Shown here: piece by piece, positions 5,845-8,756 of the stretch | Position numbering within the stretch: the first letter of the stretch is position 1 | Layout of the letters: every line of letters begins with the position of its first letter | NCBI GenBank assembly: GCA_964462415.1 | Contig: CAYWWP010000016.1 | Span: forward strand, 1 to 14,427 | Reading direction: 5' to 3' | DNA length: 14,427 nucleotides | Origin: an uncultured Candidatus Saccharibacteria bacterium | Lineage (GTDB): Bacteria; Patescibacteriota; Minisyncoccia; Phycocordibacterales; Phycocordibacteraceae | Made by a program: the position numbers and the translations under genes | Notes under the pieces: model-generated | Seen by the model: the letters and a program-made list of their open reading frames with translations, nothing else | What the model was told of the DNA's origin: nothing | The model's database searches: none

Positions 5845-5926
5845 GCCGTGGTGGCGGAATTGGTATACGCGTACGCCTCAGAAGCGTATGCCGCAAGGAT
5901 TGAGGGTTCAAATCCCTCCCACGGCA
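5845..5926 (+). tRNA. tRNA-Leu (anticodon CAG), class II; no encoded CCA
   Basis: GCCGTGG-TG-GCG-GAATTGGTATA-CGC-G-TACGC-CTCAGAA-GCGTA-TGCCGCAAGGATT-GAGGG-TTCAAAT-CCCTC-CCACGGC-A. Confidence 0.9.
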
Positions 5927-5938
5927 CACTGTATAAAC

Positions 5939-5978
5939 AGAGAACTCCCAGGCTTTCTGCCTGGGAGTTCTCTTATTT
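5939..5978. terminator. Bidirectional intrinsic terminator shared by the convergent tRNA-Leu(CAG) and tRNA-Val genes
   Basis: A perfect 15-bp stem AGAGAACTCCCAGGC / GCCTGGGAGTTCTCT has a 5-nt loop. It is followed by TATTT on the plus strand and GTTTAT on the minus strand. Confidence 0.75.
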
Positions 5979-5980
5979 AG

Positions 5981-6053
5981 TGCGCGATGAGGGACTCGAA
6001 CCCCCGACCATCCCGGTGTAAACGGGGTGCTCTACCAACTGAGCTAATCGCGC
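5981..6053 (-). tRNA. tRNA-Val (anticodon TAC); no encoded CCA
   Basis: The reverse complement is GCGCGAT-TA-GCTC-AGTTGGTA-GAGC-A-CCCCG-TTTACAC-CGGGA-TGGTC-GGGGG-TTCGAGT-CCCTC-ATCGCGC-A. Confidence 0.9.
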
Positions 6054-7092: not shown

Positions 7093-7836
7093 GTGGGCAT
7101 GGAACTCACCATTCTCTACGAAGATGACCAGATGGTCGCGGTGGCAAAACCCGCGGGGATTATGACGCATCCGGATGGGCACACTCTCGAGGAGACGGTG
7201 TCGGATTGGTTTGCCGCTCGATACCCCGCTTCAGCTGCGGTGGGGGAGACGCAGCGCCTGGTAAATGGAACGGAAATAGCGCGTCCGGGCGTGATGCATC
7301 GCTTGGATAAAGATACCTCTGGTGTATTGGTGCTCGCGAAGACACAGGATATGCATGCATTTTTGAAGCACGCATTTAAAGAACGCACCGCCCACAAGAC
7401 ATACCTCGCACTCGTCTACGGTGTTCCTAAAGAGCGCAGAGGGACCATAGAGTTTGCTATTGGTCGCTCACGAAAGGATTTTCGCCTGCGTTCAGCACAG
7501 CCACGCGCCAAGGGCACCATGCGTGAAGCGGTGACGAAATATGAGGTAATGAGCGATATCGGAACCCATGCGCTCTTGCGGGTGCGTCCGGAAACCGGTC
7601 GCACCCATCAGATTCGCGTGCATTTAAAGGCAATCCACCACCCTATTGTGTGTGACCCGCTCTATGCCCCGGGGCGCCCGTGTGACCTCGGGACGAGCCG
7701 CTTGGCGCTCCACGCACTCTCGCTTGATCTGCCGCTGCCAGACGGTAGTCGACGCCTCATTACCGCCCCAGCCCCAGATGACTTGATCTCGGCGCTCAAG
7801 CATTTCCCCGAATATGAGGCAGCCATTGCCTCATAA
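7093..7836 (+). CDS. RluA-family 23S rRNA/tRNA pseudouridine synthase (no N-terminal S4 domain)
   Basis: The catalytic motif [15 protein letters not shown] is present, together with [10 protein letters not shown]. The start is GTG at 7093 or ATG at 7099. Confidence 0.85.
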
Positions 7837-7864
7837 GAAACCGCATGGTACAGTGCTGACCACT

Positions 7865-8374
7865 ATGCAGAACGTTATTACTCCGGTCGCAACCAACGAG
7901 CGTGTCCAGCTCGGTATTCGCACGGGCGACACCGTACGCGTCCACCAGAAGGTGGTAGAAAAGGGCAAGACTCGTATTCAGATTTTCGAAGGTCTCGTTA
8001 TCGCGGTTAAGCATGGCACTGAGCCAGGCGCTACCTTTACCGTACGCGCTACCATGTCAGGTATCGGCGTAGAGAAGATTTTCCCACTCTACAGTCCAGT
8101 AATCGAGAAGATTGAGATCACTCGTCGCTCTAAGGTTCGCCGCGCGAAGCTTTACTTCATCCGTGAGAAGGTTGCTCGTGAGGTACGTCGCCAGCTCCGC
8201 AACATGCGTATGGTTAAGGTATCAACCGATGACTTCAAGGAGGAAGAGGCTCCGGTAATTGAGGAGGCTGTAGCAGAAGAGGCACCTGTCGTTGAGGCAG
8301 AAGCAGTAGAGACTGCAGCAGCTGAGACCGCCGAGGTAGCAGCAGAAGAGAAGAAGGACGAGGCAGCAGCCTAA
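7865..8374 (+). CDS. rplS: 50S ribosomal protein L19 with a ~50-aa Glu/Ala-rich C-terminal extension
   Basis: [30 protein letters not shown]...TFTVR...[18 protein letters not shown] is the L19 core. I prefer the ATG at 7865 (MQNVI). An extended -10 TGGTACAGT (7846-7854) lies upstream. Confidence 0.9.
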
Positions 8375-8455: not shown

Positions 8456-8537
8456 GCCCAGTTGGTGAAATTGGTATACACGCTACCTTGAGGTGGTAGT
8501 CCTTTCGGGGGTGGAGGTTCGAGTCCTCTCCTGGGCA
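8456..8537 (+). tRNA. tRNA-Leu (anticodon GAG), class II; no encoded CCA
   Basis: GCCCAGT-TG-GTG-AAATTGGTATA-CAC-G-CTACC-TTGAGGT-GGTAG-TCCTTTCGGGGGT-GGAGG-TTCGAGT-CCTCT-CCTGGGC-A. There is one T/C mismatch at the 7-66 pair. Confidence 0.85.
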
Positions 8538-8540
8538 CAC

Positions 8541-8584
8541 GAGAAAATAACACTGGCTGCAGTTGTGGCCAGTGTTATTTTCTT
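8541..8584 (+). terminator. 17-bp hairpin with T tract directly after tRNA-Leu(GAG)
   Basis: GAGAAAATAACACTGGC (8541-8557) pairs with GCCAGTGTTATTTTCTT (8568-8584). The loop is 10 nt. Confidence 0.6.
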
Positions 8585-8702
8585 GCCCAGGAGAGGACTC
8601 GAAAGTGAGCGCGGGTACCAGCGCAGCAGCGCTGGTCGCGCGAGGCGGCTCGCGACATATTCGAGTGACGACGAGAATATGTTGTGAGAGAGTCCTCTCC
8701 TC
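8585..8702 (+). other. Candidate structured RNA or tRNA-derived repeat module (inverted plus direct copies of the tRNA-Leu 3' end around a GC-rich multi-hairpin core)
   Basis: Positions 8585-8603 are the perfect reverse complement of the tRNA 3' end at 8518-8536. Positions 8690-8701 are a direct copy of 8521-8532 and form a 12-bp closing stem with 8589-8600. Inside lie hairpins at 8609-8641, 8641-8652 and 8657-8680. The stretch 8609-8656 is about 79% GC by my count. All ORFs here are implausible because they overlap the tRNA and the hairpins. Confidence 0.5.
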
Positions 8703-8756
8703 AATTCTTCCCATCATTTTCCCGAAGCCAGAAGTCGTGGTATAACCCATCTACAT

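Follow-up and report, generated by a model that had tools for sequence, protein, structure and literature searches.

Short non-coding elements built on copies of the host tRNA 3′ end lie behind tRNA genes of Patescibacteria

The stretch of DNA analysed here, hereafter the window, comprises 14,427 nucleotides of contig CAYWWP010000016.1 and is a chromosome segment of a bacterium of the Patescibacteria (candidate phyla radiation, CPR). Besides seven tRNA genes, it contains pilM, uppS, rplS, mscL and a gene for a pseudouridine synthase, and the nearest relatives of its ribosomal protein L19 come from metagenome-assembled genomes (MAGs) of the Paceibacterota/Parcubacteria type (82–90% identity). 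Two of the tRNA genes, tRNA-Leu(GAG) and tRNA-Ser(TGA), are each followed by an element in which an inverted and a direct copy of the host tRNA's own 3′ end enclose a structured module. These two stretches, 8584–8701 and 781–903, are probably two copies of one large family of non-coding elements of 90–190 nt.

tRNA-Leu(GAG) occupies 8456–8537 of the forward strand, on which all features of this locus are given (ARAGORN; Rfam RF00005, 44.8 bits). CCA is not encoded; T54 falls on 8518, C56 on 8520 and the discriminator A73 on 8537. The segment from the T-loop to the 3′ end of this live gene (C56–A73, 8520–8537), termed tail1, is the template of both copies. It is followed by P0 (8542–8583), an A/T-flanked, GC-cored hairpin found by repeat search and folding, with 16 perfect pairs (8542–8557/8568–8583), a 10-nt loop and a U-rich 3′ arm. 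The antitail (8584–8603) then reproduces tRNA positions 54–73 as a perfect reverse complement, matching 8518–8537 in 20 of 20 nt where 200 shuffles gave an expectation of zero; it finishes in ...GGACTYGAA, which is invariant in the family. Module M (8604–8689, here of type B) was delimited by RNAfold, a covariance-model match and covariation. It is made up of an A-rich junction strand, the hairpin P2 (8610–8642, loop AGCA), a linker GAGGCGG and the hairpin P3 (8649–8688), whose tip consists of tandem G·A and a 2-bp mini-hairpin (GAGUGACGACGAG). The last part is tail3 (8690–8701), a 12-nt direct copy of tRNA positions 57–68, which pairs with 8589–8600 so that antitail and tail3 form the 5′ and 3′ strands of a helix, P1. 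The sequence GAGTCCTCTCCT accordingly stands three times at this locus, at 8521–8532 and 8690–8701 on the forward strand and at 8589–8600 on the reverse strand, with a chance expectation of zero. Further downstream, CATCATTTT (8712–8720) is what is left of the native tRNA-Leu terminator's 3′ arm, recognised by comparison with the empty sites L032, L037 and L007, where the arm is intact, and with the filled site L010; the tRNA-His promoter region lies beyond it at about 8738–8746.

An initial annotation of this locus, made from the letters alone, had claimed a 19-nt mirror of the tRNA end, a third copy at 8690–8701 pairing over 12 bp with 8589–8600, and a G+C content of about 79% over 8609–8656. 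The mirror proved to extend over 20 nt, the third copy is present, and the G+C content is 0.792 compared with 0.521 for the window. Of the 17-bp hairpin proposed at 8541–8557/8568–8584, 16 pairs are perfect and the 17th is an optional G·U pair (8541/8584). The proposed four-way junction with three local hairpins is, in the Leu copy, a three-way junction with the two arms P2 and P3. A long composite helix had also been predicted, and the fold of a read-through RNA does stack 20 + 16–17 bp with a 4-nt bulge; this is the global minimum-free-energy (MFE) structure (−145.1 kcal/mol, z = −11).

The same plan, as had been noticed at the time, recurs at the tRNA-Ser(TGA) gene on the reverse strand (946–1030), the host of the second copy. 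P0 of this locus (904–944) is the core of a 27-bp perfect palindrome (895–921/927–953) that reaches into the acceptor 3′ strand of the tRNA. The antitail (861–903) is split: an inserted hairpin of 21 nt (874–894) separates an anti-acceptor part (895–903) from an anti-T-stem/T-loop part (861–872), and a split at this same acceptor/T-stem boundary is seen in many relatives. The type-A-like module, with GGC/GCC at the base of P2, and a degenerate tail3 (781–793) together occupy 781–860, all on the reverse strand. A covariance model, R1, seeded from nine copies of the element, matches the Ser module at 787–869 (60 bits, E = 1.5e-11) and the Leu module at 8595–8695 (35 bits, E = 1.6e-5).

An assembly artefact is ruled out for the Leu locus, given that its sequence is identical in five independent assemblies from different samples. 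As a separate observation, the independent short-read assemblies L081–L085 of the strain start at window positions 8471–8523; each of them breaks within tRNA-Leu or the tail of that gene. These breaks are probably due to the tail sequence being present three times, and elements of this kind may be a systematic source of fragmentation in CPR assemblies at tRNA genes.

Relatives were sought in 80 loci around rplS homologues (798 kb, 316 tRNAs). A scan of the kind suggested by the initial annotation, here for an inverted copy of at least 10 nt of a tRNA's own last 25 nt within 200 nt, found such copies downstream of 22 of 301 tRNAs and upstream of 1 of 301. Together with the window, these loci contain 26 matches to R1, each 33–105 nt behind a same-strand tRNA and every one in a MAG record of the Patescibacteria group (Saccharibacteria-, Paceibacterota- and Parcubacteria-type); the rplS loci from Actinomycetota and from further organisms outside the CPR yielded no match. 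A scan of metagenomes with a 23-base gapped pattern gave at least 122 matches in at least 120 loci, and the following counts are among the matches listed. A same-strand tRNA end lies within 150 nt upstream in 97 of the 122, and the hosts comprise at least 38 anticodons. Five of the remaining matches have a transfer-messenger RNA (tmRNA) gene upstream and one has a tRNA that contains a group I intron; the rest are mostly contig ends or second units of tandem arrays, with seven unexplained. R1 itself finds at least 131 copies across 100 of the metagenome loci (0.6 Mb), with up to five per 12 kb, and in multi-tRNA operons the element sits after the last gene. Nearly all copies found with R1 in the two sets begin 30–105 nt behind a tRNA on the same strand or a tmRNA gene, and samples from the Hainich aquifer yielded many of them.

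The shared plan is a tRNA gene, in most cases an A/T-flanked GC hairpin, an inverted tail ending in ...GGAYTYGAA, a module with the recurring motifs AGCCGGAG, CGAGGCGGGGTCGCG and CGTGACC, and a direct tail copy. Both copies in the window possess the features by which R1 is defined, namely the ...GGAYTYGAA end, the junction A, the base of P2 (P2a) with tandem G·A, the upper part of P2 (P2b), GG, P3, the tail copy and a tRNA gene (tDNA) on the same strand. These data show that the family exists and is specific to tDNAs; among the sampled loci it is seen only in Patescibacteria, directly 3′ of tRNA or tmRNA genes and on the same strand. The recurrent, tRNA-templated architecture without an open reading frame (ORF) that had been proposed from the window is borne out.

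The family is wider than R1 captures. Other module types with the same outer plan (an antitail ending in ...GAA, two hairpins and a tail) and a different sequence occur at L051 (3624–3721 and 6966–7049), L189 (about 380–500) and L134 (1756–1862, reverse strand); the module of type C, for example, is composed of GAAG, a long hairpin, GGGUACUG and a 5-bp stem with a GUAA loop. Tandem arrays of elements are present at L110, L108, L152 (12035–12310), L200 (55–305), L189 (150–600) and L191. Some of them, at L110, L108, L152 and L200, are perfect duplications of a unit of tail, spacer, antitail and module, and others interleave types A, C and D behind one tDNA.

Known families and linked genes were looked for in several ways. 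At gathering thresholds, Rfam 15 finds only tRNAs in the window; at E ≤ 10 it gives only generic hairpin matches on 8530–8720, and at E ≤ 1 no family recurs on the elements of 12 further loci. A known RNA family is therefore rejected over the window and those 12 loci, at gathering and permissive thresholds alike. ORFs overlapping the elements have no Pfam match. When the 1,752 ORFs of 120 loci were clustered all against all, no protein cluster was present in more than eight loci and none proved to be that of a recombinase or a reverse transcriptase; those at the top of the ranking consist of housekeeping proteins (L19, ClpB, RbfA, ParB and MiaA). Coding potential and a linked enzyme are rejected on these grounds. 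The pattern scan of viral contigs produced only chance-level matches, with no tRNA nearby and at most 21 bits with R1, and blastn against phage and plasmid collections gave no match, so that a phage or plasmid origin is rejected as well. Apparently, the family has been undescribed so far: a prior description was not found in open-access full text, so an earlier account may be missed, and the passages of PMC9897764 that answer to a term search contain no description of the element.

On the sense strand the fold runs in the order P1, an A-rich junction strand, P2, a GG linker, P3 and the tail copy, which starts from or beside C56. P1, the antitail paired with the downstream direct copy, closes a three-way junction with P2 and P3. 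P2 has a base of 3 bp (P2a), a tandem G·A internal loop and a variable hairpin (P2b); P3 has the form GGUCGCG.../...CGUGACC, and its tip again holds tandem G·A and a 2-bp mini-hairpin. Two further hairpins are optional, one with a CUGC loop that splits the antitail into anti-acceptor and anti-T-stem (874–894 in the window) and a small one in the T-loop part of the tail copy.

This fold bears the marks of selection. In an alignment of 131 sequences, 92.8% of cells pair, compared with 33–43% in slid controls, and 21 of 22 pairs display double changes, with which the nine-sequence seed agrees. One G·U pair is kept in 115 of 129 sequences, P2a varies in step as GCC/GGC, GAC/GUC, AAC/GUU and GGC/GCC, and in each of 17 copies compared the sense strand has the more stable fold of the two strands. 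The inner eight positions of P1 pair in 72–100% of 102 elements that have 52 different T-stem sequences. One subfamily carries GAGAA in place of TCGAA in the antitail, which sets tandem G·A opposite G57–A58 and is a designed departure from plain copying. By the measure of this comparative evidence, the module fold is shown to be under selection, and the selected single-strand fold is most plausibly that of an RNA. The fold under purifying selection is the one in the sense of the tRNA, and the transcript would therefore appear to matter. An RNA from the opposite strand, with a scaffold and a 3′ guide of the same sequence as the tRNA tail, like the omega-RNA of TnpB, is rejected because the sense strand folds better in all 17 copies and the conserved wobble is a G·U on the sense strand.

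The conserved pairing is that of the antitail with the downstream copy, instead of that of the antitail with the live tRNA tail, on which the initial annotation had put its emphasis as a 36-bp lock. Such a cis antisense lock would act in the read-through RNA, where the antitail would invade the T arm and acceptor stem and form about 36 bp of double-stranded RNA with the terminator stem, an RNase III substrate or a misfolding trap by which 3′-extended pre-tRNA would be destroyed or regulated. For a read-through RNA the lock is thermodynamically possible: the long hairpin is the global MFE structure at both loci, with −145.1 versus −129.7 kcal/mol for Leu (a gain of 15 kcal/mol) and −151.2 versus −126.8 kcal/mol for Ser. 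Moreover, the Leu antitail fits the tail in 20 of 20 nt, including 8 nt that have no partner in tail3, and several loci join tail, hairpin and anti-acceptor in one unbroken perfect palindrome. Nevertheless, the antitail of most copies is 10–12 nt long or split by a hairpin, its outer part has often decayed (six tRNA-Leu copies have TTGTAGC, for example), tRNA and antitail are in many copies not separated by a hairpin, and the partner with which the antitail co-varies is tail3. The lock also leaves the conservation of the P2/P3 module and the tmRNA hosts unexplained. We consider it quite unlikely. Among the three options first put forward for this locus, the lock is the one without comparative support, whereas a structured small RNA (sRNA) and an element that copies its target's end both come near the comparative data.

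P0 for its part is a candidate intrinsic terminator, with its 16-bp hairpin and its 3′ arm UUAUUUUCUU. A simple consensus scanner does not list it because its loop has 10 nt (the limit being 8 nt) and its T-run lies inside the stem. Hairpins equivalent to P0 come after tRNAs at empty and filled sites alike. P0 is probably the terminator-like hairpin of tRNA-Leu, outside any regulatory lock, and it looks bidirectional.

Comparison of orthologous sites defines what was added. Empty sites have the tRNA, its terminator, about 10 nt and the tRNA-His promoter; filled sites carry extra DNA. The direct repeat spans C56 to C74 or A76 (19–21 nt), and of 42 perfect cases about 34 have unrelated flanks outside it. 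In relatives, tail3 reaches the full tRNA 3′ end, and the native terminator or a remnant of it comes after tail3; at tRNA-Arg it is common to L010 and L011, and the CATCATTTT remnant is kept by the window and L010. The downstream copy has an encoded CCA where the upstream copy has CAA in six cases, and where the direct copies differ it is tail1 that pairs 7/7 with the 5′ acceptor strand of the tRNA. Given the repeat boundaries, the native terminator or CCA behind tail3 and the fit of tail1, the downstream copy is the displaced original end. From these observations, together with what we infer from them, the insert consists of the upstream copy, hairpin, antitail and module; the upstream copy serves as the live tRNA end, the displaced copy retains the native terminator, and tail3 of the window would be a truncated remnant of the original end, decayed to the 12 nt still needed for P1. 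The event would have placed the module and a replacement tail, often with its own hairpin, between T55 and C56 of the original gene.

The antitail is templated by complementing the tail and is no mimic of the tRNA's own 5′ strands. At non-Watson–Crick positions it carries the complement of the 3′ strand (in the acceptor stem, nine cases versus one); the Leu antitail has G and A where the 5′ strands of the tRNA have T7 and G49, and the G3·U70 pair of tRNA-Ala becomes A-U in the element in 3 of 3 cases. The same positions, and the inverted T-loop copy (ACTYGAA), rule out a degenerate tandem or convergent tRNA duplicate. A retroviral-type primer-binding site is excluded as the antitail lacks a TGG complement of CCA wherever CCA is not gene-encoded. 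An intron in the T-loop is rejected too: C56 is the first nucleotide of the downstream copy, the acceptor portion of that copy decays, and of the two copies it is tail1 that suits the tRNA. Nor is the element a group I or group II intron or a known self-cleaving ribozyme, for there is no Rfam match and the downstream copy is without T54–T55, so that splicing would restore no tRNA.

Three loci show unusual states of this arrangement. At L168 (3338–3498, reverse strand), the 5′ part of a tRNA-Ser(UGA) (acceptor, D arm and anticodon arm) is fused to an element spacer, antitail, module and a matching tail with CCA; it has no intact upstream tail and is not called by ARAGORN. Either a deletion has turned this gene into a pseudogene, or it is a tRNA whose T-arm has received about 100 nt of inserted sequence, and a module fused into the T-arm in this way cannot restore the T-loop, which again contradicts a T-loop intron. 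The tRNA-Leu(GAG) at L056 (6480–6737) has the very unusual T-loop TGCAAGT, with G at position 55; the antitail mirrors this odd T-loop exactly (ACTTGCA), and the tail copy is broken by a small palindrome. At L040 (3405–3445, reverse strand), a tRNA-Val and its terminator are followed by a solo 9-nt anti-acceptor, TGGGCGCTA, with no module, possibly the footprint of an element loss or a first step of palindrome extension.

Formally, the layout of the element is the signature of a tDNA island, in roughly 150 nt and without a gene: a regenerated gene and a displaced 3′ fragment are found, an integrase and cargo are not. It might be a neutral scar, left after an integrase-borne island or prophage entered the T-loop and lost its interior, with attL, debris of the attP arms and attR remaining. 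The regenerated gene with its displaced fragment as a direct repeat from T-loop to 3′ end is indeed the classical tDNA signature, and the target class, tRNA and tmRNA genes, is the one used by tyrosine-integrase islands (Islander, PMC4383910). However, a scar would show no inverted copy adjusted to each host, nor should more than 150 copies have a conserved secondary structure with compensatory changes and a conserved G·U pair, in discrete size classes of 65–90 nt. No full-length relative with cargo or integrase exists in the 120 + 80 loci, and the viral, phage and plasmid collections contain nothing comparable. We hold a scar to be very unlikely, and the initial annotation's fallback on neutrality gives way before the strong compensatory covariation of the module.

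Evidence that modules move between tDNAs comes, among other loci, from L168, where two modules at tRNA-Ser(UGA) and tRNA-Ser(CGA) of one contig are 100% identical. Identity stops just after the T-loop CGAATC, from where each continues into its own host's tail; the copy at tRNA-Ser(CGA) still has the UGA-type antitail, unadapted to the second host. Modules behind tRNA-Arg(CCG) and tRNA-Ala(GGC) agree at 94% of positions between the CUGC hairpin and the inner tail copy, with a locus-specific anti-acceptor, and those behind a tmRNA gene, tRNA-Arg(TCT) and tRNA-Ser(GCT) are about 91% identical, the homology being bounded by TCGAA ... CGA. At tRNA-His, a near-identical module lies on one side of the terminator in L010 and on the other side of that terminator in L029. 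Given that modules are copied between tDNAs with junctions in T-loop sequence and that no enzyme gene is linked to them, we infer transfer by ectopic recombination or template switching. The universal T-loop would be the right anchor and the tRNA end or hairpin the left one; an exchange anchored in the T-loop would automatically duplicate the recipient's own segment from C56 to the 3′ end, and fold-back copying from the tail (palindrome extension) would then make or correct the antitail.

A different route would be that of a guided mobile element, in whose single-stranded form P1 would rebuild the target duplex beside the scaffold M; a recombinase or nuclease encoded in trans would read M, and the antitail and tail strands would pick the cognate tDNA, an arrangement comparable to the attP(+) of CTX phage in its folded form, to integron attC or to a recombinase guided by RNA. 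P1 does always replicate the host tail, the scaffold structure is conserved with P1 free to vary, modules move between tDNAs, and the inverted and direct target copies lie about 65–90 nt apart, like the two dif-like sites of CTX attP(+). Other unusual RNA-guided systems occur in CPR bacteria (bioRxiv 10.64898/2026.09.09.750476). Against this stand the want of a linked recombinase, the self-complementarity of guide and target copy, which would block the guide, and the youngest copy (L168, tRNA-Ser-CGA), whose donor antitail is mismatched to the new host; the antitail was therefore unneeded as a guide for that insertion. Such an element seems improbable to us.

Our best reading is that the element is tDNA-specific, copy-templated and RNA-structured. 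Its likeliest role would be that of a co-transcribed 3′ appendage of tRNA operons with a closing stem like a tRNA minihelix. Many copies have no hairpin between tRNA and antitail, and these would therefore be co-transcribed 3′ appendages of the tRNA operon. Complete copies resemble a stripped tRNA, with an acceptor-like stem of 7–10 bp, one hairpin, a T-like stem, the module in place of the T-loop, a discriminator, CCA and a terminator, so that their ends could be set by the enzymes that process tRNAs. Older copies, among them the Leu copy of the window, show decay of the acceptor part.

A more specific version would have RNase P and RNase Z release a free, minihelix-closed RNA with the acceptor stem, discriminator and CCA of the host, acting in trans as a decoy or mimic that titrates or recruits a reader of tRNA 3′ ends. 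The complete copies at L225, L220, L118, L176 and L188, with their acceptor-like stem of 7–10 bp, CUGC-loop hairpin, T-stem-like helix, discriminator and CCA ahead of a terminator, are what this sRNA would look like, and its co-transcription with the tRNA would agree with the many copies that have no upstream terminator and with the position of elements after the last tRNA of multi-tRNA operons. Identity elements are lost, however (G3·U70 of tRNA-Ala is A-U in 3/3), the acceptor part decays in many copies, with the Leu tail3 stopping after 12 nt, and the module replaces the T-loop, so that recognition of the elbow is lost. This makes a tRNA decoy of that kind unlikely. A mimic that can be aminoacylated is rejected, given the loss of G3·U70 in all three cases and a Leu tail3 without the acceptor part.

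More broadly, the co-transcribed, copy-templated element may represent a class of genetic element, selfish or domesticated, that is new and confined to tRNA and tmRNA genes: a conserved scaffold of RNA or folded single strand that would be moved by pairing or microhomology with the universal T-loop and 3′ end, whose closing helix would be re-templated for each host and whose transcript would be a new tRNA-operon-linked RNA with a cellular role. We offer this only as a tentative proposal. If true, it would amount to programmable, enzyme-light targeting of tDNAs in reduced CPR genomes.

Several points weigh against our best reading. The outer 8 nt of the Leu antitail are perfect, yet they have no partner in tail3, which would fit either youth of the copy or a pairing role with the live tRNA tail. 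Many copies have a perfect, full-length tail3 even where modules that share a tRNA have diverged, which calls for a recent insertion or turnover, for homogenisation or for some function of tail3. The whole case for RNA over folded single-stranded DNA consists of the conserved G·U pair, GNRA-type loops, tandem G·A and the strand bias. The proposed mechanism of transfer is read from the junctions of a handful of young pairs, and a trans-acting recombinase encoded elsewhere in the host genomes is conceivable.

tRNA and tmRNA genes are classic landing sites of integrase-borne islands. With tDNA islands of tyrosine integrases, as recognised by the Islander signature, the element shares the target class, the identity block from T-loop to 3′ end, the restored gene with its 3′ fragment displaced as a direct repeat, and tandem arrays at one tDNA. 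It differs from them in its 90–190 nt without integrase or ORF, in its inverted target copy and covarying, RNA-like fold, and in that a single family of modules is found with at least 38 tRNA species, its repeat being templated anew on each of them. The element may thus be described as an island-like landing signature without an integrase, about 100 nt long, whose terminal helix is rewritten from each target.

In CTX-phi attP(+) and integron attC, two inverted target-like copies about 90 nt apart fold into a hairpin that mimics the duplex target; they are recognised by XerCD and IntI, respectively, and have the fixed cores dif and GTTRRRY. The element appears comparable to them in its conserved structure with free sequence and in its strand-specific folding; its stem, by contrast, is formed by the tail of the host tRNA, and no recombinase is known for it. 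An integron attC (RYYYAAC/GTTRRRY) is rejected, since the helix of the element ends in ...YTCGAA/CGARTCC and no intI-like ORF is present. Miniature inverted-repeat transposable elements (MITEs), repetitive extragenic palindromes and bacterial interspersed mosaic elements (REP/BIME), Correia elements and Rickettsia palindromic elements (RPE) are likewise short, non-coding, multi-copy and intergenic, with hairpin potential and presence/absence polymorphism. In contrast to MITEs, the inverted repeat of the element is copied from each insertion site, its target is strict, there is no known parent insertion sequence (IS), and its duplication of 19–21 nt has fixed borders, from C56 to the tRNA end (C74/A76), in place of a short target-site duplication of fixed length. 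A MITE is rejected because P1 changes from locus to locus, matching the tRNA tail of each site, in 52 T-stem versions.

At tyrT of E. coli, distal repeats of 178 bp each start with the last 19 nt of tRNA-Tyr. There, as in the element, the tRNA 3′ end is directly duplicated downstream and tandem units arise from recombination; unlike the element, the tyrT repeats are confined to a single locus and are not known to have an inverted copy or a conserved structured module. The t-elements of plant mitochondria, the MALAT1-associated small cytoplasmic RNA (mascRNA) and viral tRNA-like structures (TLS) also place a helix that mimics acceptor and T-stem beside another RNA, so that enzymes of tRNA processing could set its ends. 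What sets the element apart is that its mimic strand complements the 3′ strand of the adjacent tRNA letter by letter, that a three-way junction stands in place of the T-loop, and that identity pairs are not kept. The tigRNA arrays of TIGR systems (CPR) and the bridge RNAs of IS110 are structured RNAs that address both strands of a DNA target and have tandem G·A (K-turn-like) motifs. In tigRNA, however, which has box C/D motifs, the stem is a conserved palindromic repeat, the spacers vary and are non-complementary, and tas is adjacent, a logic that the element reverses; the IS110 bridge RNA lies inside an IS that encodes its recombinase, and the element has no such gene. Both are rejected as identities of the element on account of its opposite architecture, with complementary, target-derived strands, and of the absence of a Nop-domain ORF cluster or an adjacent effector gene.

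If confirmed, the family would be a new kind of mobile or duplicative element and an abundant structured RNA family in a poorly understood bacterial radiation, and a natural case of target-templated helix formation. It would account for recurrent assembly breaks and odd 'partial tRNA' calls at tRNA loci of Patescibacteria, and, through the covariance model, the defined junctions and the availability of young and old copies, it would give a handle on the 3′-end biology of CPR tRNA operons.

Some further observations were made at the loci examined. In the window, tRNA-Leu(CAG) (forward strand) and tRNA-Val(TAC) (reverse strand) are convergent at 5845–6053 and have a common bidirectional terminator hairpin (5939–5973); both are without an element here, and both carry one in relatives (L003, L035, L041). 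L19 of the window (7814–8374) continues at its C terminus for about 60 amino acids, rich in Ala, Glu and Lys, past the end of the Pfam domain near residue 125; relatives have tails of varying length here. At L153 (986–1221, reverse strand), a tRNA gene that hosts an element is interrupted by a group I intron (Rfam RF00028, 79.6 bits). At L127, L150 and L130, elements stand behind an RNA-like 3′ end (...GTTCTGAAAGCC...CTGTAGGGTCACA) that is recognised by neither ARAGORN nor Rfam; the tail copy of the element matches this end, which may belong to an unannotated tRNA-like gene. Finally, ORFs of about 190–260 amino acids at L112 (844–1512), L142 (3947–4630), L163 (409–1074), L167 (3895–4557), L188 (2795–3460), L200 (372–932) and L152 (3051–3812) form two clusters and end at the 5′ end of a same-strand tRNA gene or overlap it by a few nucleotides. 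A representative of one cluster has a sub-threshold Pfam match to a helix-turn-helix domain and the other cluster is LAGLIDADG-like by eye; these ORFs may be free-standing, homing-endonuclease-like genes that abut tRNA genes of Patescibacteria.

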